Positions 4,753-44,843 of a stretch of 44,843 bases of DNA are shown here, one piece after another; positions within the stretch are counted from its first letter, which is position 1; each line of letters opens with the position of its first letter. The notes beneath the pieces are model-generated. The model saw only the letters and a list, made by a program, of their open reading frames with translations. It ran no database searches and was not told the origin of the DNA. Source of the DNA: Reclinomonas americana ATCC 50394 (lineage: Eukaryota); assembly GCA_048213135.1 (NCBI GenBank), contig PS015061.1:364628-409470 (forward strand). Direction: 5' to 3'. The position numbers and the translations under genes were made by a program.

Positions 4753-5353
4753 GTCTCTCTCTCTCTCTCTCTCCGTCGTACCGTCGTACGTACGTACGTA
4801 CGTACCGTACCGTACCGTACGTACGTACGTACGTACGTCGTCGTNNNNNNNNNNNNNNNNNNNNNNNNNNNNNNNNNNNNNNNNNNNNNNNNNNNNNNNN
4901 NNNNNNNNNNNNNNNNNNNNNNNNNNNNNNNNNNNNNNNNNNNNNNNNNNNNNNNNNNNNNNNNNNNNNNNNNNNNNNNNNNNNNNNNNNNNNNNNNNNN
5001 NNNNNNNNNNNNNNNNNNNNNNNNNNNNNNNNNNNNNNNNNNNNNNNNNNNNNNNNNNNNNNNNNNNNNNNNNNNNNNNNNNNNNNNNNNNNNNNNNNNN
5101 NNNNNNNNNNNNNNNNNNNNNNNNNNNNNNNNNNNNNNNNNNNNNNNNNNNNNNNNNNNNNNNNNNNNNNNNNNNNNNNNNNNNNNNNNNNNNNNNNNNN
5201 NNNNNNNNNNNNNNNNNNNNNNNNNNNNNNNNNNNNNNNNNACCGTAAACCGTAAACCCGTAAACCGTAAACCCGTAAACCGTAACCGAACCGTAACCGT
5301 ACGTACGTACGTACGTACGTACGGTCGGTCGGTCGTCGTCGTCGTCGTCGTCG

Positions 5354-22427: not shown

Positions 22428-25400
22428 TTACACGTGCTGCTGCTCCTCGCCGCCATACGCCTCCTCGTACTCCTCCTCCAGCAGGGCGTCCGGAGTCAAG
22501 GTGGCTGCGCGAATCTCGTCCAGTGCCTTGGAGGCGGCCATGGCCACGCGTGGTGGGCACGGAGTGGTCGAGCGCATCACCAGGCTCAGCTTGTCCTCCA
22601 GCTGACGCTTGTGCGCGCGCAGCACCTTGCCCTGGTTGCAGTAGGCGTCCTTCAACGCCTGCCACCGTTGCTCCAGCAGGCTGTGCTTCTGCAGCACCTC
22701 GCTCACGAGCTTGGCGTCCAGGTCACGTCGCCTGCCGGCCGAGTCGAGCTCGTTCTTGTAGTAGGCGATCGAGCGCTCGCACTCGTCCAACGTCTGCTCG
22801 CGCGCCTGCAGCATCTCCACCAGCTCGACGTTGATGCTCTCCTCCTCGCGCAGCTTCTCCTCCAGCTGCTGTCGGTGCTCCTCGAACTCTTGAAGCACGT
22901 GGGTCTTGGACTCGTTCAGCGCCGTCACCTCCTGCTGCAGCTGATCGCGCTCGGCCGTCGTCTCGGTGAGATCACGCTCCAGTGCCGCGTGTCTCTCCAT
23001 GCGATCGCGGAGCGTCTCCTGCAGCTGGCGGCAATCGTCGACGGCCGACGCCAGTCGTGACTCCATGGACGCCATCTCCTCGCGCATCGTGTCTTCGCGG
23101 GTGTTCTTCTCGTCTTCCACCTCGCGAATCAGCGTCAACAGCTCCTCAATCTGCTGCGCGCGCACTCGCGTCATCTCCTCGCAGTCCACCAGCTGCTGGT
23201 GCAGGCCAGCCTTGTCCTCGAGCGTCACTCGCAGTTGGCCTTGCACGTCGGCCAGCGACATCTTCGTCAGCTCCAGTTCGTGGTTGCGGCTGGTCAGCAC
23301 GCTCTCCAGGCGCTGCAGCGTGGCCTCGGCCACCTGCAAGTGCGCCGAGACGCGCTCGCCACGGGCCGACAGCTGCTGCAGGTCGTGGTTCTGACGCTCG
23401 GCCGACTGCGCACGCGTCACCCACTGGTCCAACTCGGTACGCAGCTCCGACGTCAGCTCCTTCGACTCGCGCGAGTCTTCGAGCAACGAGTCGCGCTCCA
23501 GGCGCAGGTCCTCCACCTCCAGTTGCAGTGTGGCCACCGTGACGCGCAGGTCGCCGAGACGGCTGCCCATCTTCTCCACCACCGCCTCCAGCTCCTCAAA
23601 GCGATGCTGCTTCTCCTCGGCCTCGGCCTCACGAGCGGCCAGCACGGCGCGCGCGGATGCGACCTGCGCCTCCAACGTGGCGCGCTCGGAGCGCAGCATG
23701 TCGAGGTCGTCGGCCATCGAGTCGAGGGCCATCTCGCGCTCGCCAAGTTGCTCCTCCAGCGCCACGGCACGGGCGACAGCGCGCAGCACGCCACCCTCGA
23801 GCTCGTTCACTGCCGTGCGAATCTGCGCCTCGCGCTCCTCGCTGCCGTGCAGCTGCGCCTCCAGCAGGTGCACACGCTCACGCGACTCCTGTGCAGCGGC
23901 GCGGGTCTTGGCCAGGTCGTGTCGGACGGCCGCCAACTCCGTGGTGTCCTCGCTGAACAGGCGGCCGAGAGCGTTGCGCTGCACGGCGACCGCCGTGGTG
24001 TGCGCCAGTGCCTGAAGCGCATCCTCGGCAGCTTGCTGCGCAGTGCCGGACAGTTGCGACTGCAGGTTGGCCAGCTGCTGTCGCAGCTGCGCCAGCTGAG
24101 CATCACGCTGCGCCAGCAACGAGTTCTTGTTGGCGAGCGCAGACGACAGCGTCTCGTGTTGCTGCTGCTTCGCGGTCAGCGCCTTTTGCGTCTGCTGCAG
24201 CTGCGCCTCCGTGTGTGTCACCTCGGCAGTCATGGACTTGAACATGGCCTCCAGCACGCAGTTGCGCGACAACAGCTCGTTGCGCTCCTCCGTCAGCTGA
24301 GCATTGGCCAGCGCCAGAGCGCGGCAGTGCGCCTGCACCTGCTCGCGGTCACTGACCAGCGCGCGTTTCTCGTTGAGCAGCTTCGAGTTGGCCTCGGCCA
24401 GAGTCGCGCGGGTGGATTCTGTGTTGTGGATCACATGGGTTTTTGAGTGACACAAGCCCATGCAAAAGAGCGTCTTCAAGCTGACGTACCCAAGCGAGTG
24501 CGCTCCTCCGTCAAATCGTCAGTGTGCTTGTTGAGACGGCCGACCTGGTTGGCCAGCTGGTGCACATCGTTGCGCAGATCAAAGTTCTCGCTCAGCAGCG
24601 TCTGCAGTCGGGTCTCGTACATGTCGCGAACCGAGTCCACATCGCCCATCGACAGCTCCAGCGTGGCGAGGCGGCTCTCGACGAATGCCAAGCGCGAACC
24701 GTCGACCTTCTCCTCCCACAGGTTGGGGGAGGCGCCAATCGAGATTTGCTGCGCATGTGCCGCGTACGTCAGCGTCGACAACGTGTCGGCCGCGTTCTCG
24801 GTGGCCGGTGACACACAAAACAGCATCATCTGTGATTTTGAAAGTGAGAAAGCAGAACAAACAAGATAAAGGGCGATTGCAGGGCGACGCAACAGTGCGG
24901 GCATTGGTAAAGGACTTGTACAGCAGCGAGGTGAGCTTGCTGTCGCGGAAGGGAATGGTGGCAGACGACGACGACGCCTCCGACAGCTGCATGAGCACGC
25001 GACCGACAGCGAGCACACTGCGGTTGACAGTCGCCTGCGTGGCGCCCTGGTTGTGCGAGTTGCCGGCCACGTCGACAATGGTGAGGCGCGAAATCGTGCC
25101 CGGCGTCTCCTCCGTCTGGCGCTGATACACAGTCAGCTGAATAATGACGTCGGGCTGGCCGAGGTTGAGTTCCTCGAACGGGTTGCGGCTGCGGCGAGCC
25201 ACCTTGGCGCGCAGTCGCTCCAGACCCTGCGACAGCGTGCCGAGAGCCTGCGTCGCCGACTTGACGGGGCGATCGGTCAGGCCCTCGACAAAGAAGCCGC
25301 CGGCCTGCTGCGAGCCGCGCAGACGCAGTGAGCCACTGCCGCTCGGTGTGCCGGGGGTGCTGCCAAATGTCGGCGTCGTGGCTCCCGACTGTCGGCGAGT

Positions 25401-26348
25401 CGACGACGACGATGAAGCACCCGGGGAGGGTGGGCGACGTGACGACGACGTGGGTGTGCCGGTCGCGGCGGTGCGCGACATGGTCGGCGAGGGCGCCGCA
25501 GGTCCGAGCGACGGCGACGAGGGGGCGCTGCCGGCGGGCGACGATGCCGAGTTGCCAGGCCGGGCCAAAATGTCCTCCAGCGAGTCGGCCACAATGGCCA
25601 CCGCCGTGAGCTTGACCTCGACCGTGGTCGAGGTCGGGTGCCGCTGCTCAAGCGCCTCAAAGAGACGCGAAATGGCGCACGCTGCCACACCCGGCATGTC
25701 ATCGGCCTCGGTCGGCTGCTCACCAAGCGCGTCGCCAAGAAGCGTAAACGACTTGCCAGTGCCAGCGTGACCAAACGAGACCAGCGACGCATCAATGCCA
25801 GCGGCGCAGTCGCGCACCAGCGGCTCCACCGTCTCATTGTGAATGCGCCACGAGGCTGTGTCGGCCGGGAACACGTGATCAAAGCGGAACGAGCGGGCGC
25901 TCGAGCCAATGTTGACGCTGAGCTGCCCGTTGCCGCCCAGTGACAGCGCAGTGCCCGACTTGCACGGTGCAACCTGTGTGTGTGTGTGTTGCAGGTGAGG
26001 GGAAATAAAACGAAAACGGAATATGGAAGGGCAAGTCAGTTGTACCTTGACTGCCACCACCATCTTCTGCTGGTGCGGTTGAGCAGCTGGCGATGATGCG
26101 TGCGTCGCAGAGGCGGTGGGTGTCAGCGCGGCCTTGCTGGGCGTTGGCGACGATGAGGTCTTGCGCAGAGCGCCATACACGGCCGTGGGCGAGTTCATGT
26201 GCCACATGGGTGGCTTGCCGACAAACGACGTCGGTTGTGACGAAGGAGGAGGTGGCGACGAGGACGATATCGACATGGGCGATACGCTGGCGGCGCGACC
26301 GCCGAGCAACGACTGATCGTCGTCCACCAATGAAGGTCCGAGATCCAT
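22428..26348 (-). CDS. Kinesin-like protein 2 (paralog of protein 1), degenerate motor plus coiled coil, 4 exons
   Basis: FRFDHVF, ASLVSFGHAGTGKSFTL, LTIVDVAGNS, IPFRDSKLTSLL, DTLSTLTYAAHA. Coiled-coil exon ~24418-22428. Confidence 0.85.
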
Positions 26349-26636
26349 GTGATGCAAAATAGATGTGATTGGAGGGAGAGAGAGAGTGTGTGTGTATGTG
26401 TTACAAGACCAACAAGCTTGGTGCTCGCTCTCAGGTGGACACACAAAGAATGGGGTGCACTGAAAAATGTGGTTATCTCGTTATCTAGAATCGGCGGTTT
26501 CTTCGTTATCGATCTCCCCCCAACACACACACACACGCCTGCCACCGCCTTTAACGCCTCTCGTGACTGTCATTGTCTACGTTCATGAAAAGTGTGCACA
26601 CACACGCACACACACACATGCACACACTCGTGACAA

Positions 26637-29398
26637 TTACGACGGCACGCGCTTCCTGTCCAAATCCGGCAACGAAATTCCGGCGACAACTTGCAGGTGG
26701 CTCCTGCAAGTAATGTAAATCGATAGCGCCGTTTCTGCAGCGGCGCAAACACAGGCATACCTTCCGGACTCAATGTCCGCAGTCCACACGCGCACGGAGC
26801 CATCGAAACCGCCGGTGACGACGATCACGGCTGCTTGATCCGCCTCTTGTGCAACGGCTAGCGACTGCACTGGTGCGCCGTGATTGTGGCCCACGCAGCA
26901 GTCCTGCTGTGCGCCACTAGCCAGCGACCATGTGCGTAGTGAGCCGTCCCAGCTGCAGGAGACCAGCATATCGTGCCCATCCGCGAATGCAACACCGGTG
27001 ACGCTGCTGGTGTGTCCAGCCAGTTGCCGCAACTGCTGCGCATGCACATCATCGCCGTCGGGCGACAAGGACCACACATGAATAGAGGCGTCTTTGCTGC
27101 TGCTGGCCCACGTGCGACCGTCTGTACTGACGGCAAGTGACAGCACACTGGTCGCGTGCCGATGCACCACCGACACGAATTCTCCGCTGGCCAGCGACCA
27201 CAACCGAACGGTGCCGTCTTGTCCGCCACTGACCACGTGCGACGACCCTGTCACCGCAAGGGCAAGCACAGCGCCCTCGTGACCCTCCATGCAGTGCACG
27301 GCATCTCCAGTGGCCAGCGACCACACACGCACCGTGCCGTCCCAGCCACCACTGAGCACCAACTGCGACTCCGGTGTCACGGCCACGGCCTGCACCTCAC
27401 GTGTATGTCCGCGCAGCACCAGCGCGCACTCGCCCAGCCTCCTTGTCGCCAAAGACCACACACGGAGAGTGTGATCAAAGCTGCCAGTGACGATGAACTG
27501 GCCATCGGGGGACACCGCCACCGCCTCCACCCATCGCGTGTGTCCGTGCAGCTCGGACACGAGCGTGCCAGTCTCCCGTGACCACACGCGCGCCACATGG
27601 TCGCGCCCACCACTGACAATCAGTGCAGCGTCTGGCGTGAGAGTCACGGCACCGACAACCGCCGCATGGCCAACGGTTTCATTGCGCACTTCGTCGCCCT
27701 CGGTCCACTGCCGAATCGTGCAGTCATGACTGGCGCTGAAGACAACCAGTGGTGGCGGCGACGGCGACGCAATTGCGACAGCCGACACGCAACCAGCGTG
27801 TCCCTCGAAGCGACGCACTTGGCGGCCGTCGTCGAGCGACCACATGCGAATGGATTTATCCCAGCCTCCAGAAACCACGTGCCGCGAGTCGGGCGACACG
27901 GCCACGCACCACACAGTCGCCGTGTGACCAACCAGTCGGTGCACCATGTCGCCACTGTCCACACGCCACACGCGGATGGTGTGATCTGCTGCACCGCTCA
28001 CGACCGACTGCGAATCAGGCGCAATGGCCACACATGTCACCGCGTCGGTGTGGCCGATGAACCGGCGCACCACTGCCATCGTTGCTTCTGTATGCACACA
28101 CAGGTACAGCATCTTGTCCATTCCACCGCTGACAACAAGCTGTCGGTCGGCAGCCACACACATCACATGACCGCAGTGATGGCGATGATGGCACACTTCT
28201 GCTCCAGTGGCGAGCGCCCACTTTCGCACCACGCAGTCACGACTGCCACTTATCACATGCTCGCCATCGGCCGTCACCGCCACGGCCAGCAATGCGGCCG
28301 AGTGTCCTTCCAAGCGCGCCTCTAGCGCGCCCGTCATCGCGTTCCACACGCACACCGCCGAGTCTTCGCCGCCACTCACCACACTGTCGGCAGTCAGCGC
28401 CACCGCTGTGACGGCACCCTTGTGAGCGTGCTCGATGCATCGCACCGGCCGTCCACCCACCTCGGACCACACACACACGGAGCCGGCACCGTCGCCACTC
28501 ACCAATGACATGGGCGACGACGCGGTGACGGCCAAGGCTCGCACCTCTTTCGCGCACCTCGCAAAAGGCTCTCGACGCGGCAGTCGCGCACCCGTCACAT
28601 CAGCATCCGTCAGGTCGGCGTCTAGGCACAAGGCCAGACTCAGGTTCACGTCGCGCAAATCAGCACCTCGCAACACCGTGCGATGTAGCACGGCATCTCG
28701 CATATCAGCGCCACACAGTCGAACGCCACTCAAGTCGCGACCGCTGAATGACACGCGCGCGGCTGTCAGAATGGTCGCGGCATTGGCGGCCGCCGTCGTC
28801 GTCACCTCGCTTGTCTCGCGTGACAACAGCACCACTTCCCACAGGCGCTGCTGCAGTGGCGCGGACGCTGACACCATGCTGGCCAGCTGCGTCACCAGTC
28901 GCGGTCGGTCGGTGAGCAGGCGTGCATTCAATGACACTGGGAGCAGCAGTGACTCGTCGTACACACTGCCGATGATGAGGACGGATGATGAGTGAATGGG
29001 AATAATGAATGCACAACGACATCAGCGCGTCACGCAACGAATGCTGCTGTGGCGCACTGCTCACAAGCAGGTGAGGAGTTGTGGCACGAATGCCGACATC
29101 GCTCAACAAGATCGTGTGGCAATCATCTGGCGTCAAATCCTTGCAGAATGGCACATGGATCATTCGGAGAGAGGAGCCTGGGGTGAGCGTGCGGTGTAGT
29201 TCCTCATCCACGTGAGTAAGCAGCTGTCGAAGGGTGCTGCGCGCATGCATGCCGTCGACAGTGACGGTGCACACCGATTGCGACGCGGCATCGGTGATCA
29301 CATCCACATGCACGGAGAACGACTGCGTGGATACAAGTGAGAGGACGTGAGAGTGGCCATGCAAGGATGAAAAGAACCTCGGCTCCGTCGTCGTGCAT
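26637..29398 (-). CDS. Ubiquitin-like domain / pentapeptide repeat / 14x WD40 protein (NACHT-less NLR-like paralog), ~877 aa
   Basis: Exons 29398-29378, 29322-29039 and 28965-26637 join in frame (an in-frame 57-nt intron near 26760-26704 is possible). SFSVHV..VTVDGMHARSTLRQLL..LLSDVGIRATTPHLLV; AAANAATIL..FSGRDLSGVRLCGADMRDA; 14 GH..SG..D..W repeats. Confidence 0.8.
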
Positions 29399-32693: not shown

Positions 32694-32972
32694 NNNNNNN
32701 NNNNNNNNNNNNNNNNNNNNNNNNNNNNNNNNNNNNNNNNNNNNNNNNNNNNNNNNNNNNNNNNNNNNNNNNNNNNNNNNNNNNNNNNNNNNNNNNNNNN
32801 NNNNNNNNNNNNNNNNNNNNNNNNNNNNNNNNNNNNNNNNNNNNNNNNNNNNNNNNNNNNNNNNNNNNNNNNNNNNNNNNNNNNNNNNNNNNNNNNNNNN
32901 NNNNNNNNNNNNNNNNNNNNNNNNNNNNNNNNNNNNNNNNNNNNNNNNNNNNNNNNNNNNNNNNNNNNNNNN
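32694..32972. other. Assembly gap preceded by an (AAC)n microsatellite
   Basis: Run of N after (aac)n at ~32670-32693. Confidence 0.95.
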
Positions 32973-33615: not shown

Positions 33616-34521
33616 ATGAGCAGCAACAGCTTCGCCACCGGCCAAGGCTGGGACCAGGCCGCCGAGACGTTCGCTCGCATAGCCTCGCGTATCTCGGCGC
33701 ACATGGGCCACGCCGCGCTGGAGCGCAGTGGATTCTTTGAGTTGTTGCACGACGAGCATCACCGCGCGCACCTGCTCGATCTGGCGTGCGGCGCGGGCCC
33801 CGTGGCGCTGGAGGTCGCAGAGCGCATTGCTGCGGCCGCGCACACCAAGGCGCACGTCACGGCCGTCGACATTTCTCCCAAGATGATTGAGCTGCTGGAG
33901 AAGCAGGTGGAGGCGCGGCATGTGAACCCGCAGCTGATCACCACCGTCGTGCAGAGCGCACAGGAGCTGCGGCCGTTGTTGGAGGATGGCTCCGTGGACG
34001 CGGCGATCAGTGTGTGGGGACTCATTTTCTTCCCGGATCGCGTCGCCGGCATGCGCGAGGTGCACCGCGTGCTCGCCGCCGACGGCACCGCAGTGATTGT
34101 GTCGTGGGCCTCGAACGACTTGGTGGAGGGTGTGGTCACCGTCATGCACCGCCTGAAGCCGGAGCTGCCGCCCGACGCCATGCCGCCGAGCGTCGCCGCG
34201 GCACTGTCGTTGCGCACTCCCGAGGACATGCTGCGGCTGTTTGCGGAGGCCGGCTTCGAGGCCGACAAGTGCCAGGCCGAGCTGTTCCCCATGCGACTGG
34301 ACGAGTCCGGCCGCTTCCTGCTCAACGTCAAGTCGGCGGAGGAGTTGGCGGCGACGCTGGCGGTGAATCCGGTGTTTGCCGACGCCGCCAAGTTTGCGGG
34401 TATTGAGATGGAGGTGTTTCAGAGGGGCATGATGGAGTGGTTTACAGAGAATGCGCTGGATGAGGAGACGAGCGAGTTTAACTTCAAGGCCACGTCGCTG
34501 GTGGGTGTGGCCCGGAAGTGA
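33616..34521 (+). CDS. Class I SAM-dependent methyltransferase (Methyltransf_11/25, UbiE-like), intronless, 301 aa
   Basis: LLDLACGAG (motif I), VTAVDISPKMI, LEDGSVDAAISVWGLIFFPDRVAGMREVHRVLAADG; uninterrupted ORF. Confidence 0.9.
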   Translation: MSSNSFATGQGWDQAAETFARIASRISAHMGHAALERSGFFELLHDEHHRAHLLDLACGAGPVALEVAERIAAAAHTKAHVTAVDISPKMIELLEKQVEARHVNPQLITTVVQSAQELRPLLEDGSVDAAISVWGLIFFPDRVAGMREVHRVLAADGTAVIVSWASNDLVEGVVTVMHRLKPELPPDAMPPSVAAALSLRTPEDMLRLFAEAGFEADKCQAELFPMRLDESGRFLLNVKSAEELAATLAVNPVFADAAKFAGIEMEVFQRGMMEWFTENALDEETSEFNFKATSLVGVARK

Positions 34522-35187
34522 GAGGGAGAGAGGCTGGGGAGGGGGAGTCTCGAGTCGTGTGCCCAATCACAAATCTTAATGAATTTCACTTTGGCCAGAG
34601 AGCGTGACGAGGAGCGTTCAGGTCAGTGGCCACTTGTGCGTCAGCAGCAACCACAGCAGCACCAGGCAGAGAGACAACAGGAGACAGCAACACAGAGAAG
34701 TACCGCAGTGCTGAGGCGTGGCAGGCAACTGGCAGCTGCTGGGGATTGACGTCTGCGACCTTGTTCGTCTGTGCCGGCTTGGCCACCAAACCAGCAGTTG
34801 GCAAGACGACCATCGACCACCCTACAGCGAGCGGTGGAGCATGCATGCTCAGCCACAGGGCGAGTCGGCGATCGGCGGCGTGTCAACAGCTTCACCGCAG
34901 AGTTGATCCAGAGTGGCCGCTCGCTCCACCACCGATCGAGTACAGGCCGAGACTTCACAGATCGCAGACGGATTGCCAGCGATGTCGCGATACACTACCT
35001 CGCGATGATTGGATCACGCTGGCTTTTCTGATCGTCGCGCAGCTCCAATGACGAACGCCAGTGAGAGAGTTGATCATGTGGGAAAAATGTTCGACCTCAC
35101 ATTGATCATGCGCACGCACACACAGGGAGAGAGAGCGACGCACACACACCGCGCTCGTGGAGGGCGTCAACGCGTTGGCCACATCAA

Positions 35188-35323
35188 GGTACCAAAGCGA
35201 CGCGGTCGGAAAAACAGTGTGCGCGTGCACGAGTTGCAGGAGTGGCAAAAGCCACGCAGTCTTGTCGACGTAGTAGGCGCCGTCCTCACGGATCTGGAAA
35301 ATTGATAGGCCAGTGTGGGGAAT
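35188..35323 (-). pseudogene. N-terminal remnant of an AAA-ATPase_like (PF09820-type) gene, frameshifted
   Basis: IPHTGLSIFQIREDGAYYVDKTAWLLPLL in one frame and TLFFRPRRFG in the adjacent frame match the family signature G..F..IR..YYVDKT...RPRRFGK. Confidence 0.7.
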
Positions 35324-35573
35324 CTGTCGTGCAGTTGAACGAGCTCGAGAGGGTTGTTGTGAAAACCAACTCCCAAGATTGCAGTCTGAGAACAACGAGT
35401 CGCCAGCGCCGGCATTCCGGCAGCAGTGCGAAGCCAGCGGGGGGATATACTGGTGGCGGAGCGTGTGCATTCACGGCGAGCGTGGGCCCGGAAAAAGCTC
35501 AATAAAGTCCTCTATTTTGTTCAGTGTGGAGCAATTCAATTGTCAGATTGACTCCCAACGTCGAGAGCAGGCC

Positions 35574-38500
35574 ATGTCGGTGTGTTGGCGTGTTTGTGCA
35601 TTCATTCTCTTATTCCTCGCTTGTTTCCCACTCACCCTTCCGTGCAGTTCTCTGTGCACGTGAGCGCAGCGCATGATTCGTCGCTGTCGGCGGTGGTGGA
35701 GGGCATGTCGGCCATGTCCACTCTCGCCGACTTGCTGCGTGAGGCCACACGCTTGCTGCGCGAGAAGAGTGGAGATGGGGAGATGGAGATTGTGGGAGTG
35801 AAGAAGCCGATGGCATTCAACATCGCCAAGTTCGGGGTGATGGAACTGGCGGACCTTGGCATCAGCTCATCAACTCACCTGGTTGTCCATCTGACACTTG
35901 GCATGGCGCTGCAGTCGAGTGGAGTGAGTGGCAGTGAGAGTGGAAGGTATGTGTTTGTGAATCATCATATATGGCAACATGCAACTCACTCAAGTCCTCA
36001 CGCAGCAACTCGGAGCGAGTTACTCGGTTTGTTCTGCTTGCCGTAATCATCTTCCTCTCTCCTCTGCTTGCTCTTCACTTTCGTGAGAGTGTGCTGACTG
36101 CGTTGCGTGTGCACGCACAGCATGATCAACTCGCAGCGCGTCAACATGGCCTTTGAGGTGGTGGAAGAGGCCGTGCGTTTGCGCTGTCAACGCATACTGG
36201 CGCAGTTCAGTCGTGATCATTCCGACTTTGATGTGCGAGCGTGGGTGCCGAGTTTCACGCCTGCTGGCATGGATGCGGCGGCAGTGAAGGAATGGCGTGA
36301 TCGACATGCTCCACTCCACCCCTCTCGGGTCAAGTTGTTTGACGAGAAGCAGCCGGTGATGTTGGCCTGGCGTGCTGCATTCGACACCGATTCATCGTCT
36401 GACCCTCCGTGTGACGGTTTCGATACGACGGCACTCACCTCCATCATGCTGTTTGGTGGTTACGTTCATGATGACGGTCGCCAGCTGCGTCTGATCGACA
36501 ATGCTGATGAACGGAAGGCCGTGGAGGAGCTACAGTACACCAGGAACAAGCTGAGACACGATGAGTTGCCAGTGACGCATGGCAGTGTGCAGCAGTATCT
36601 CGGTGACGGTGGTGTCTTCCTCTCTATTCTTACTCGACTTCAATTGACGGCTGATGAGCGTGCTCAATTCTCTGCTCGTATCTCCGAGGCACGTCACGCT
36701 CGACACATCGTGGACACATTCGAAGAGCGACTGCATCAGCTGGCTTTGCGTGAGCTCTCATTCTACCAGCACGATGAGAATGTGCGCAAGGACATGCAGA
36801 TGTATGTGCCACTTCTGTGCTCCCGTGAACGTGACGTCTCATCGAGAGACAAGATGACGGATCTGTTGACGGAGGTGGATGAATTCCTCTCCGACGCCAA
36901 CACCACTTGCCGCGTGCTGGTGCTCTTTGGCAACAGTGGAGCCGGCAAGACCACCTCCATGTCGGTGCTTGCTGAGCGAGCGTGGCGACAGTGGCAGACG
37001 AGAGAAAGCAGACGAGTGCCTGTGCGTGTGCCTCTTGGTGCACTGCGCAACGCGGACGAGCGATTGTTGGAGGAGGCACTGGAGCGACTGTCGCCTGAGT
37101 TGGGATTGGAGTCGGATGTCCGGCGATTGAAGGAGGAGCCACTGTTATTGTTGCTTGACGGGTACGATGAGTTGTACCGTGGTGTGAATTTGTTTGTCAA
37201 GAATCAGCTGGATGTGTGTCACGATGTGAAGGTGATTATCACCTGCCGAAGTGATTACGCACTGACGGCGCTGGGTGGGGTGACGCAGTATCGACGGTAC
37301 CTTGCAACAGTGGATGCACGCGGACAGTTGTGTATGCTGCAGTTGATGGAGCGACACATTGCGCCGTTCAACAAGGAGCAGATTGAGGAGTACATTGAGC
37401 GACTGGTGCAAGCAAGTGGTGATGACGGTGAGGTGCGATGGTCGACTGCCGAGGAATACATTCGTGCACTAAAGAGTGTGCGCGGATTGGATGCACTGGT
37501 GTCGAATCCATTCTTGCTGGCAGTAGTGGCGCGTGTGTTGCCGCAGTTGGCGGCCGTTGGTTTGCAGCGACCGACTCGGCGAGATGTGTTTGATCGATTC
37601 ATGCGACTGTGGATTGAGAGGGAGCAGGAGAGGCAGAAGCGTCTTGATGCGGATCGTGTGCCGAGCGAGGAGACGTGTCTGGCATTCTGCGAGGGACTGG
37701 CGCGGTCGATGCATAAGAGAAATGTGGTTCGTGTGTCTGTGACAGAGAGTCAAGCTGGTGATGACGGAGAGGATGATGACTTTGGTGGTGCGCCTCTCGA
37801 TCGTCGGCGAGTTGAAGAGGGACCATTTGACAAGTTTCTCGGTCACAAGAATCAGCACGTGCTAGTGTGCTGCCCGATTGTGCGACGGTATGGGACGGCG
37901 CAGTGGGGATTCGTGCATTTGTCGTTGCTGGAGCATTGTGTGGCACGGCATGTGTTTGCGTGGGAGACGTGGGAGGAGGAGAGGAGATTGACCATGCAAG
38001 ATGTGCAGCAGCATGTGCTGGCTGTGCGATTGCTGAATGATCGACCATCGTTGGTGGAACAGATGGCCGAGGTGGTGCGACGATCACCTGCGTTGCAGGC
38101 GAGACTGTGGGAGGTGATTGAGTTGTCACGGGAGGTGGATGAGGAACGAGTGGTGAGGGCAGCGGCAAATGCAGCAACGGTGCTGTGTGTGGCACAAGTG
38201 TCGTTCAGTGGGCGCGATCTGTCGGGTGTGCGAGTGAGGGGTGCGGATTTGAGAGATGCGGTGATGCACAGGACGGTGTGGAGGGGAGCGGATTTGCGAG
38301 GGGTGAATGTGTGCATGGCTTATGCGAGGGAGGCGGATTTTGGAGATGCGGATGTGACTGGGGTGAAGTGGCCGAGAAAGCCGATTGTGGGGCACGTTGA
38401 TGTCGTAACATGCGTCTCCTTCACTCCCGATGGTCAGCACATCGTAAGTGGGAGTTGGGATAGGACTGTACGGGTGTGGTCTGCGGCGGGTGGAGAAGAA

Positions 38501-41301
38501 GTACGACGCTTTGAGGGACATACTGAAGGGATTTTGTCCGTCGCCGTCACTCCTGATTGCCAGCACATTGTGAGTGGCGGTGAGGACTACACAGTACGGG
38601 TGTGGTCACTGGCGAGTGGTGAAGAAGTGCAACGATTGGAGGGACACACTGGATGGGTGCTGTCTGTTGCCATCACACTCGACGGTCAGCACCTGGTGAG
38701 TGGGAGTGCTGACAAAACTGTACGAGTGTGGTCACTGGCGAGCGGAGAAGAAGCGCGACGGTTGGAAGGGCACGCCGGTATGGTGTGGTCCGTATCTGTC
38801 ACTCCTGATGGACAACGCATTGTAAGTGGAAGTGACGACAAAACTGTACGAGTGTGGTCACTGGCGAGCGGAGAAGAAGTGCGACGGTTTGGGAGACACG
38901 CCGAAGGGGTGTCAGCTGTCGCCGTCACTCCCGACGGTCAGCACATTGTTAGTGGCGGATACGACAAGATAGTGCGAGTGTGGTCTTTGGTATGTGGAGA
39001 GGAAGTGCGACGATTGAAGGGACACACTGATAAGGTGCTATCTGTTGCCGTCACTCCTGATGGGTGTCATATTGTCAGTGGCAGTCGAGACAAGACGGTT
39101 CGTGTGTGGTCGGTGGCAAGTGGTAAAGAAGTGCGTCGGTTTAAGGGACACTCTACAGCGGTGTACTCTGTCGCCGTCTCTCCCAATTGTCTGCATATTG
39201 TGAGTGGCGCTTATGACAAGACCCTGCGAATTTGGTCACTGGCGGGTGGTGACAAAGTGCGATACTTTGAGGGAGAAACTGACGCAGACGTGGTGCAGCT
39301 TGTGGATGAGCGACTAGGCGGTGTGGCATCACGGGTATTGCGACGAAGGATCGTGGAGGCACTGCAGAGTGAACGGCGAGAAAGGAATGCACTGCGAATG
39401 AGTGCTAGTGTTGGGTGAGTGACGGAGGTTCTCTGTTGCCAAGAGGCGCAGGCAATTGACTCACTTCTTCCTTTTCCCTCTCGCGCAGCTGGTTGCAGTC
39501 TCAGTCTCCAGCTCAGCTGACGGAATCTCAACTGGAGGAGTTGTTGGCTGCAATCGACGGTGACACGCTGCCGGAGCTGCTGGAGCGCTTCATGAGGTCG
39601 CAGCCAGCATCAACTCAGCGCTTGTTGATGTTTATTACGGCTTGCAAGGAACTCGCCTTGACCGCGACTCCTATGCTCATTCGAGTGGCAACGGGTGCGT
39701 TGCGAGTAATTCCCGACATAACGATGACTGTAGACGGTGATGTTGAGCAGGCTGCTGTGAAGGAAGATGAGGAAGCCGCATATCGACTGGTGGAGCTAGG
39801 TCAGTGTGTGCGCCGACTGCGACTGCATGAGCTGGCACGAGAGAGGAGACGACGTGCACCCGAGGTGGTGGGTGAGCGGGTGCAGTATGACGAATTGAGC
39901 AAGGAGGAGGAGCAGCGAGTTCGTGCACGGCGTGATGAGTTGGTCGGTGACGGTGATGTGGAACAAGATTTGCAGAGTTTGCAAGCGTTGCGTCTGGTGA
40001 GTATAGGTGCAAGCAGTGGTGCAGATAGCGTAGTTCGTGTACTGTGTAACAAGGGCGCGTGCGAGAGCGACAAGGCTGTAGAATACCGAGTGCATGATGA
40101 GCTTGCTGCCTGGATCGCGAGACGTTTCGCGGATGTCGTGTCGCGTACACAACGGTTGCTGACGCGGCTGGTGTGCGGTGCACTGAGCGGAATCGACTCG
40201 TGGTCTGATTGTGACGGAGTACTATCGGTGTCTCGAGAATCACTCGGCGCGCTGCACTCGATGTGGCGCCGGTTGGGCGCGGACAGTCACATGTGGTCAA
40301 CCGACGTTGTTGGAGTGGATGGGTTGCTCCTGCAATGTAATGCAGTGGAGTGGGTTGGTGAACTGTGCGTGGCCGAGCGGCTTCCCGCACGTGGCTTTGA
40401 TCTGGCTGTCGCCGCGAAACTTGTTGAACGACTGACAGCATGCGCACGTGGCGGATGTCCTCCCTTGTTGTTGTTTGCCATCGAGAAATCTCGCGGGTGG
40501 TTGTTGCAAATGTTACGAAAGTGGGGTGAGTGCAATGCAGCATGGCAGAAGGTGTTGCAACTTGTTCCCGAGGTTGACAGCGATTTGTTGCCGGCGACTG
40601 CGTTGCGCTTTGTGTCGTGGTTTGCTTTTCTGGCGGGCAAACAGCGCGTGCTTGAGCAATGCCACATGGACCAGTCTACGACTCTGGGTGAGAATCACCC
40701 TGACACTCTGACGACGCTGACGCGGCTGGCGAAGCATCTCAACCACCGCGAACACTACGCCGAAGCCGAAGATATAGATCGGCGATGTTGGGAGGTGCGA
40801 CGGCTTGTTCTCGGCAGTGAGCATCCGGACACTCTCATTTCCATGGGCAACTTGGCCTCAGACATGCAGCCAGCTGGTCGATTGGAGGAGGCCATCCAGC
40901 TCGAACGCGAATGCTTCGAGCACCGGCGACGTGCACTCGGCGAGTTGCATCCGGAGACTCTCACCGCGAAGAACAACCTTGCCGTATCTCTTGTGCATCG
41001 TGACGCCGTAGAGTCGTTGGCTGAAGCAGCTTATTTGTTTCGTGACTGCTTGGACGGGAGGCGAGTGGCAATGGGCGACATGCACGAGAGAACACTGGAG
41101 ACAATGTGTGATGCAGCCGCGGCGTGGATGAGGCAGCTGCGATGGGGCGAGGCCGAGGTGCTGCTGGCGGAGTGTATTGACGGTTGTCGGGCATTGTACG
41201 GAGATCAACATCCAGTCACAGTGGAGACAGTAGGCTTGCTGGAGGAATGCCGTCGCCGTCAGCGTGACGAGGCGGAGCGAGCGCTTGCTGCGCGGACGTG
41301 A
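35574..41301 (+). CDS. NLR-like STAND protein: ubiquitin-like / HEPN / NACHT / pentapeptide / 7x WD40 / helical / TPR, ~1803 aa, 4 exons (35574-35579, 35648-35946, 36121-39414, 39489-41301)
   Basis: All three GT-AG introns keep the frame. FDTTALTSIM..EELQYTRNKLRH (RxxxxH at 36542-36559); Walker A GNSGAGKT (36929); Walker B LLLLLDGYDE; KVIITCR; NPFLL; FVHLSLLEH; pentapeptide repeats; 7 WD40; TPRs of the LG..HP.TL..NLA type. Confidence 0.85.
38390..39270 (+). repeat. Seven tandem ~126-bp WD40-coding repeats with high nucleotide identity
   Basis: Recurring gtgtggtcactggcgagcggagaagaag and gtcactcctga blocks at a 42-codon period. Confidence 0.9.
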
Positions 41302-41862
41302 TGATGTCCAGCCGTTGTTGTTGTGCTGGCTCATGTGGTTTGAGTTAGGCGCCGGCACCCATGTCGGTGGAGGTGGCGACGCGTGGCCCATCACCGCTGC
41401 GATGAGCGAGCAGCATGCAGGTCAGCTGACCGAAGCGTGCTTTCTCCGCTTGCCCCCCGTTGTTTCTCACACTCGCCACCCCCGGCATGCAGGTCGATGA
41501 CGCGCGGTGCTCACGCCGCATGGTCGTCACCTGTGTCGGCTGGCGCTGTTGCGCGCCACGCCAGCCAGTGCACTGGCCAAGTACGTGAGTTGTTGTTGTC
41601 GGGATCAATGTACGTAAGGGAAAAAGTGTATGACTGCAACTTTTGAGTCGAGCGTATTTGACTTCTCACGTGAATAACTTCTCTCACCGACATCGCTGCA
41701 CCACTTGCCACACATCGCTAGGTAGCCTGCCGTGCAGCCTACACGAAAGACAATGTACAGCCCCACTTTCTCGCCCTCCTTCACCAAGAGTTCTCATTTC
41801 TATTGTACATCGATGTGTTAAGGGGAAAGTTCGTCACACATTTTTCCGCACTCGCGACGACG

Positions 41863-44843
<2,981 letters not shown>

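Follow-up and report, generated by a model that had tools for sequence, protein, structure and literature searches.

A Reclinomonas americana gene predicted to be spliced and to encode an NLR-like STAND protein with a HEPN-like domain, a NACHT NTPase and two repeat arrays

We analysed a stretch of 44,843 nucleotides (nt) from the genome of Reclinomonas americana ATCC 50394 (GenBank assembly GCA_048213135.1, contig PS015061.1, positions 364,628 to 409,470 of the forward strand). This whole stretch is called the window below, and all positions are counted within it. Judged by its sequence features, the plus-strand locus that begins at 35574 or 35648 and ends at 41301 is a real and intact gene for an NLR-like STAND protein. 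We lean slightly towards the view that it is a single spliced gene for a receptor of ~1800 amino acids, in which an all-helical, HEPN-like domain with the motif RNKLRH precedes the NTPase. From its N-terminus the predicted chain would comprise a small beta-rich domain, the all-helical HEPN-like domain, a NACHT domain, pentapeptide repeats, a seven-bladed WD40 propeller, ~400 further residues and a series of TPR_10/TPR_12 units. An extra N-terminal domain followed by NACHT, WD40 and then TPR is an NLR-like architecture, and this assignment is well supported: the tripartite NLR order of N-terminal domain, nucleotide-binding oligomerization domain (NOD) and repeats is present, by predicted splicing within a single polypeptide.

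Gene structure and coding potential

The window is eukaryotic DNA with a base composition of ~58% G+C, and between 35.5 and 41.3 kb its plus strand carries three long open reading frames (ORFs), at 35582-36046, 36107-39418 (1103 codons) and 39493-41301 (602 codons). An earlier reading made from the letters alone (the sequence-only reading) had joined these ORFs across 35946/36121 and 39414/39489 into one protein of ~1803 residues. The ORF positions were borne out, and both junctions fit canonical GT-AG introns with compatible frames and a single, terminal stop. Joined from the ATG at 35705, the exons give 5349 nt and 1782 amino acids, and this much of the proposed protein holds. By arithmetic, the 1803-residue version requires an additional exon of two codons and a 68-nt intron ending at 35647.

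The full model has three canonical GT-AG introns, of 68, 174 and 74 nt, and all of its parts lie on the plus strand. Its candidate start is a micro-exon, ATG TCG (35574..35579), directly followed by the donor GTGTGT of intron 0 (35580..35647; 68 nt, GTGTGT...CAG), which has a long pyrimidine tract and a strong acceptor; the micro-exon is the most speculative piece of the model. The N-terminal exon (35648..35946) encodes a domain of 99 residues (FSVHV...GM.A.STL..LL...L.D.GI) and is backed by codon usage and by a paralogue described below. Intron 1 (35947..36120; 174 nt, GTATGT...CTGAC...CAG) preserves the frame, and its retention would lead to an in-frame stop at 36046; its junction reads ...GGAAG/GTATGT...CTGAC...CACAG/C, where slashes mark exon ends. 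Exon 2 (36121..39414) holds the HEPN-like helical domain, the NACHT, the pentapeptide repeats and the WD40 propeller. Intron 2 (39415..39488; 74 nt, GTGAGT...CTCAC...CAG) brings the reading into the last ORF's frame, its junction being ...GTTGG/GTGAGT...CTCAC...pyrimidine tract...GCGCAG/C, and the TGA that closes the 1103-codon frame (39416-39418) sits within its donor GTGAGT. A pyrimidine tract is present in both intron 1 and intron 2, as is a branch site resembling CTRAY. Exon 3 (39489..41301) encodes ~400 residues without a family (39490-40695) and the TPR_10/12 units (40696-41298), and ends in the stop codon.

Coding potential was scored as a codon-usage log-likelihood (LLR) per codon, trained on the other genes of the window with the target gene excluded. 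In frame, the LLR was +0.74 for 35648-35704, +0.46 for 35705-35944 and +0.21 for the HEPN-like part, and the 34 codons of exon 3 ahead of its first ATG scored +0.33; both other frames were negative for every scored exon stretch. All three introns scored <=0 in the proposed reading frame. Intron 0 gave -0.36 in the first frame scored and a maximum of +0.22 in any frame, while intron 1 stayed at <=0.02 and intron 2 at <=-0.07 in all frames. Since the coding signal and the conservation with the paralogue both begin at 35648, before the ATG at 35705, a start codon is required upstream. No coding potential was found at 34500-35580 on either strand. The paralogue was checked for an equivalent ATG/GT micro-exon and has none; the two-codon first exon is a guess that could equally well be right or wrong. 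We regard the one-protein splice model as highly likely at either large intron, supported as it is by splice-site consensus, reading frame and coding potential.

A candidate HEPN domain ahead of the NACHT

Exon 2 opens with an all-helical N-terminal domain (36122..36781, plus strand), the candidate for a HEPN-like effector. Domains of the HEPN superfamily are four-helix up-down bundles with their motif at the dimer interface, and they act as metal-independent RNases that need the Arg and the His of this motif. The sequence-only reading had pointed to the strings FDTTALTSIM and RNKLRH (as RxxxxH) upstream of the NACHT, and both are present, at 36419-36448 and 36542..36559, respectively. RNKLRH is a candidate HEPN Rx4H motif with Asn after the Arg and fits the form Rx4-6H with a polar residue in that position. 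In shuffles of the N-terminal 341 residues, the pattern RNxxxH appeared in 2.3%.

Among profile searches, HEPN_Swt1 was the only or the top Pfam family on 5/7 sub-fragments of the region, and in another scan on 1/2 HEPN-region sub-fragments. As a comparison set we aligned 14 Swt1-like HEPN domains from bacteria (13/401 genomes matched). Alignment of a 146-residue piece to these domains with hhalign gave a score of 19.2 (P 0.012) over 55 columns, with P values of ~0.004-0.012 across runs, and placed both HEPN landmarks in register, FDTTALTSIM on an LDxxALL segment and RNKLRH on RNRWAH. In a shuffle control (mean score 11.3, standard deviation 2.3), the observed score of 20.6 was reached by 1/275 plain shuffles and by 2/266 shuffles in which the motif was kept. 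When 33 segments along the protein were scored in this way, the two from the HEPN-like region came out best (21.1 and 20.7), the others ranging from 8.2 to 18.4.

Language-model neighbours of the 146-residue piece in the Atlas reached a score of 0.92. A HEPN_DZIP3 cluster, with PF18738 in 34% of its members, shares 189/256 features with it; clusters of DUF4559 and HEPN_Swt1 come next, and of the ten best family-bearing matches seven belong to the family or clan of the top one. With the full 260 residues the scores were just 0.80 and 0.77. A low-confidence AlphaFold2 (AF2) model of the region from the single sequence (predicted local distance difference test, pLDDT, 37.3) contained helices only. 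In it the motif ends one helix, and a loop leads from there into the next helix, an arrangement that the bacterial alignment shares. Scans of the region with padloc and NCBIfam returned nothing relevant, nor did a phmmer search of the PDB, and the 108 pattern matches of a metagenome scan included no relative.

Of the DZIP3/Swt1-type HEPN domain that the sequence-only reading had proposed, what stands is a sub-threshold Swt1 signal in Pfam and hhalign together with the HEPN clusters of the Atlas; no cut-off was passed, and the DZIP3 profile was never listed. These signals, weak and all sub-threshold but convergent, make a HEPN identity plausible. We think it moderately likely that the helical domain is a HEPN domain, and somewhat less likely that it is an active RNase.

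The NACHT-pentapeptide-WD40 core, the TPR array and their relatives

The NACHT NTPase (PF05729; 36911..37408, plus strand) was found with an E value of 3.4e-9 and 37.2 bits, against a cut-off of 26.7, in a match that spans profile positions 1-164 of 167. The consensus forms of the Walker motifs are GxxxxGK[ST] for A and hhhhDGxDE for B. Both motifs are intact: Walker A is GNSGAGKT (36929-36952, residues 270-277 of the exon-2 protein) and Walker B is LLLLLDGYDE (37142-37171, residues 341-350). The interval between NACHT and WD40 holds pentapeptide repeats (PF00805; 38198..38302, plus strand; E 4.7e-6, 26.5 bits against 20.2). Seven WD40 repeats (PF00400; 38384..39274, plus strand; E 1.8e-81 in 7 stretches) form one predicted propeller, and at the DNA level they are a tandem array at 38414-39262 with a period of 126 nt, 6.7 copies and 72% matches (Tandem Repeats Finder, TRF). 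The C-terminal array matched TPR_10 (PF13374; E 8.7e-20, 70.5 bits against a cut-off of 27.5) and TPR_12 (PF13424; E 1.3e-19, 70.6 bits against 30.1). Of its units four are complete and one is partial; five H[PE]xT[LV] units are spaced 42-45 residues apart. In the ~400 residues that separate WD40 from TPR, Pfam found no family (first 387 residues of exon 3). The NACHT, WD40 and TPR calls of the earlier reading thus each passed the Pfam cut-off; the pentapeptide stretch and the ~400-residue interval had been absent from it.

A search with the NACHT region found 8 proteins that are 20-29% identical to it, with those from Linnemannia zychae and from a Glomeribacter metagenome-assembled genome (MAG) ranking highest. 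The closest relatives (P0005, P0008, L001 and L002) are 26-29% identical over the whole 511-residue NACHT region, and close relatives of the Glomeribacter protein are also encoded by Mycoavidus MAGs (contigs L001 and L002). Glomeribacter and Mycoavidus are endosymbionts of Mortierellomycota fungi. The blastp alignments run through the pentapeptide and WD40 parts, PF00805 being listed for 7/8 of the database matches, and stop at residue 1144 of 1782. The Linnemannia and Glomeribacter/Mycoavidus proteins accordingly share with the target NACHT, pentapeptide repeats and WD40 in the same order, and they differ from it in their N-termini, which are unrelated, and in the lack of any alignment to its C-terminal 640 residues including the TPRs. 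Residues 1-274 and 1145-1782 of the joined protein are each left without an alignment to any of the 8 relatives. The N-termini of the relatives are also unrelated to one another, and one of them is a caspase domain. Since these relatives have the same core and differing ends, NACHT-pentapeptide-WD40 is an existing type of module, and since nothing aligns at the ends, 300 N-terminal and 640 C-terminal residues have been added to it in the target gene alone. The occurrence of core relatives in Linnemannia and in endobacteria hints at exchange of genes of an NLR-like family between host and endobacterium.

The N-terminal exon and a truncated paralogue

A truncated paralogue lies on the minus strand at 26637..29322 and consists of a copy of the N-terminal exon, a helical linker, pentapeptide repeats and a WD40 part in which Pfam marks at least 9 stretches. 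Its first exon, 29026-29322 on the minus strand, is 31% identical to the target exon 35648-35946, with 29 invariant columns. FSVHV, GM.A.STL..LL and L.D.GI are kept between the two copies, and the conserved part includes the residues before the internal ATG. Over residues 714-1140 of the target the paralogue is 40-47% identical (tblastn). Both the HEPN-like part and the NACHT are missing from it, and the N-terminal exon runs directly into the linker, pentapeptide repeats and WD40; for the short intron after its first exon there are several in-frame GT-AG options, for example with the donor CTT/GTGAGC. Because a copy of the N-terminal exon precedes a paralogous gene, the exon is part of the gene family and coding begins at or before 35648. 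On this comparison, the 99-residue exon is real and conserved. The truncated paralogue, ~7 kb from the target, may serve the full-length receptor as a decoy or partner, or it may be a copy in decay.

The sequence-only reading had seen a ubiquitin-like cap in this exon, and that was not confirmed. Neither the exon nor its copy in the paralogue matched any Pfam family, ubiquitin-like ones included, at E<=10. An AF2 model from the two-sequence alignment (pLDDT 47.3) had the order b-b-a-b-b-(short a)-b, where b is a strand and a a helix, which is, with low confidence, the order of a beta-grasp fold. With this model Foldseek gave 0 matches at E<=0.001 in the PDB, and no ubiquitin-like chain was among the matches listed. 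The modelled exon may have a beta-grasp, ubiquitin-like fold.

Alternative explanations

The same NLR-like STAND protein might carry in its helical region an orphan adaptor or some other effector, such as a membrane-targeting or protein-recruiting bundle, with RNKLRH as a coincidence. Several results fit this reading and weigh against a HEPN identity. No HEPN family reached its Pfam cut-off: the HEPN_Swt1 matches scored 12.8-14.1 bits (E 0.057-0.15) against a cut-off of 27.5 and were confined to the helix with the motif, at profile positions 73-100 of 115, and HEPN_DZIP3 (PF18738) was unlisted at E<=10 on all 12 HEPN-region fragments. A hidden Markov model (HMM) built from the 14 bacterial domains did not discriminate, as the ORF did not rise above six-frame noise (5.0 bits), and an enlarged HEPN profile (94 sequences, 63 after filtering; effective number of sequences, Neff, 3.7) aligned just 18 motif-centred columns, with a score of 21.9 and an E value of 0.0067. 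The protein contains the bare Rx4H pattern 10 times, and 66% of the shuffles of the N-terminal 341 residues contain it as well; by itself it is of little information. The AF2 model of the region was, at its pLDDT, unusable. Very large searches found no homologue: a word-indexed search with residues 1-265 gave 2574 candidates, none at E<=0.001, the same kind of search among longer proteins had no match for the 146-residue piece even at E<=10, and the sole phmmer match at E<=0.001 among 1.84 billion representatives was rejected as a repetitive junk sequence. Moreover, the unrelated N-termini of the homologous NACHT-pentapeptide-WD40 proteins, the caspase among them, mark the N-terminus as a swappable slot. 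Against a non-HEPN bundle stand the Atlas neighbours, which are mostly HEPN clusters, the hhalign score above ~99% of shuffles even with the motif held fixed, and the two landmarks in register together with the rarity of RNxxxH in shuffled sequence. On balance we consider a non-HEPN bundle rather unlikely and a HEPN-like domain the better account of the helical region.

The locus might also be read as two or three separate genes, one for the N-terminal domain, one for HEPN-like-NACHT-WD40 (36122-39418) and one for the TPR part from the ATG at 39592, which would put the WD40 and TPR sensor arrays in different proteins. An ATG does stand at 36122, one base past the proposed acceptor, the TGA at 39416 closes a long frame, and 0/8 of the database relatives reach the TPR part. 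That TGA, however, lies inside a consensus donor that is followed 74 nt on by a strong acceptor in compatible phase, and the codons ahead of the first ATG of the last frame carry a coding signal. The supposed genes would be spaced merely ~70-170 nt apart, and the N-terminal exon is found again ahead of the paralogue; we hold a split locus to be quite improbable. A third reading, a gene copy in decay or without expression and with no present function, is, in our estimate, extremely improbable. The truncated, NTPase-less paralogue 7 kb away does show turnover in the family, but in the target a frame of ~5.4 kb is open across four exons, Walker A and B are intact and the codon bias is kept throughout.

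Proposed mechanism

For the single receptor with a HEPN-like domain we envisage that at rest the repeat arrays would keep the NACHT module closed. A ligand bound to the WD40 array, the TPR array or both would then lead to nucleotide exchange and oligomerization of the NACHT, and the N-terminal domains would thereby be clustered. If these are HEPN domains, they would pair to build a composite Rx4H site and cleave cellular or invader RNA, with growth arrest or cell death as the outcome. Additional sensing, autoinhibition as a lid, and tagging for recruitment or turnover are conceivable tasks for the second repeat array, the pentapeptide stretch and the N-terminal exon. What the analysis establishes is the domain composition in NACHT, pentapeptide, WD40 and TPR parts, along with an exon structure read from sequence logic and coding statistics. 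In this scheme we infer the HEPN identity, the RNase activity, the activation by oligomerization and the role in immunity or cell death.

On a wider and more tentative view, the protein may be a one-chain immune or death switch from outside the animals that combines an orphan, fast-evolving HEPN RNase with a NACHT, WD40 and TPR arrays and a lineage-specific beta-rich, possibly ubiquitin-like cap. HEPN-NLRs would then be far older than the animal expansions or have been assembled independently, in the latter case from the NACHT-pentapeptide-WD40 core common to Mortierellomycota fungi and their endobacteria. The mechanism draws on what is established for STAND/NLR proteins and for HEPN RNases, in part from PMC3710099.

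Comparison with known systems

In the pearl oyster, >50 genes encode NACHT proteins with an N-terminal DZIP3-type HEPN domain, and NACHT proteins of this oyster can end in LRR, TPR or WD40 repeats (PMC9646362). According to the same source, Rx4-6H is kept in 194/202 HEPN proteins, usually with Asn after the Arg; among DZIP3-type HEPN domains this form is more frequent than any other. A survey of HEPN proteins records, across several animal lineages, DZIP3 fused to partners that include TPR and NACHT, with expansions in Nematostella, oyster and Capsaspora, and it also covers CXorf38-NACHT fusions, bacterial HEPN-STAND fusions and the ubiquitin-like and HEPN domains of sacsin (PMC3710099).

The DZIP3/hRUL138-like HEPN-NACHT proteins of bivalves and cnidarians resemble the target in the order of an N-terminal domain (of HEPN type in them, a HEPN candidate in the target) that has Rx4H with Asn after the Arg, then a NACHT and then C-terminal repeats (PMC9646362, PMC3710099), and the place of the HEPN-like domain N-terminal to the NACHT agrees with them. 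Both are presumed one-chain immune sensors. They differ in that the Pfam HEPN_DZIP3 profile is blind to the domain of the target, whose only link to them is the language-model neighbourhood, and in that the target also has a further exon at the N-terminus, a stretch of pentapeptide repeats, and WD40 together with TPR arrays. Bacterial HEPN-STAND fusions, for example a Bacillus cereus protein, bear an N-terminal HEPN domain on a STAND NTPase (PMC3710099), as the target with its HEPN-like domain may do. With HEPN-NACHT-repeat proteins known from bivalves, cnidarians and bacteria, the general design is already known, and the suggestion in the sequence-only reading that the architecture is undescribed was overstated, given that HEPN-NACHT proteins with LRR, TPR or WD40 are in print (PMC9646362, PMC3710099). 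What sets the target apart is a candidate effector domain outside all current family models, two kinds of repeat array after one NACHT, a NACHT-pentapeptide-WD40 core otherwise seen in Mortierellomycota fungi and their endobacteria, and a lineage-specific N-terminal exon. A narrow search of titles and abstracts found no HEPN-NLR or HEPN-NACHT protein from a protist.

The effectors of fungal NACHT-WD40 proteins are HET, HeLo, PNP_UDP and similar domains. Fungal NLRs of the HET-E/NWD type carry, like the target, WD40 repeats behind the NACHT, and in both the DNA of these repeats is conserved internally (PMC4986451); the 126-nt WD40 array of the target resembles these fungal arrays. The fungal proteins are tied to non-self recognition and cell death (PMC4986451), a role that for the target we only infer. 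In PMC4986451, 'HEPN' and 'ubiquitin' have 0 occurrences each and no statement on mixed WD40 and TPR arrays was found, which is no claim that the combination is absent from print.

Swt1/Ava_2192-type bacterial HEPN is the sole HEPN profile with any signal on the target, over 18-55 columns in a comparison of the HEPN part only. KEN domains are HEPN RNases that are activated by dimerization or oligomerization of an upstream module. RNase L and Ire1, with their KEN domains, and sacsin differ from the target in that they have no STAND NTPase, and a phmmer search of the PDB found no sequence similarity between the target and any of the three. Vertebrate sacsin joins a ubiquitin-like domain and a HEPN domain (PMC3710099, Table 1).

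If both the HEPN identity and the single polypeptide are true, the gene would represent a compact NLR with a directly enzymatic output outside the animal and bacterial lineages described, with an effector domain too diverged for existing profiles. It would offer a tractable test of whether STAND oligomerization activates HEPN RNases in eukaryotes, and it would mean that profile-based censuses undercount HEPN effectors in the NLR repertoires of protists. The dual repeat arrays and the NTPase-less paralogue bear on the rebuilding of receptors by exon and domain shuffling. Should the HEPN call fail, an ordinary lineage-specific NACHT-WD40-TPR protein would be left.

Other features of the window

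An Rfam scan of the window found no families. On the minus strand, 24579-26444 encodes a divergent kinesin whose motor lies within one ORF (Pfam Kinesin, E 6.2e-35) and whose top PDB match is a kinesin-5 (E 1e-19); the ORF that follows it downstream, 22428-24479, looks like a coiled coil. On the plus strand, an intron-less gene at 33616-34521 encodes a class I S-adenosylmethionine (SAM)-dependent methyltransferase (Methyltransf_11, E 4.6e-17) and directly precedes the ~1-kb non-coding leader region of the target. Downstream of the target, an ORF at 41803-42657 on the plus strand opens with a signal-peptide-like hydrophobic stretch and has no Pfam family at E<=0.001; by its sequence it is probably one exon of a gene for a secreted protein. 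Two runs of N, at 4845-5241 (397 nt) and 32694-32972 (279 nt), are probably assembly gaps. The first is edged by tandem repeats, with CCGTA/CGTA units on one side and ACCGTAAA-like 8-mers on the other, and the second is edged by (CAA)n.

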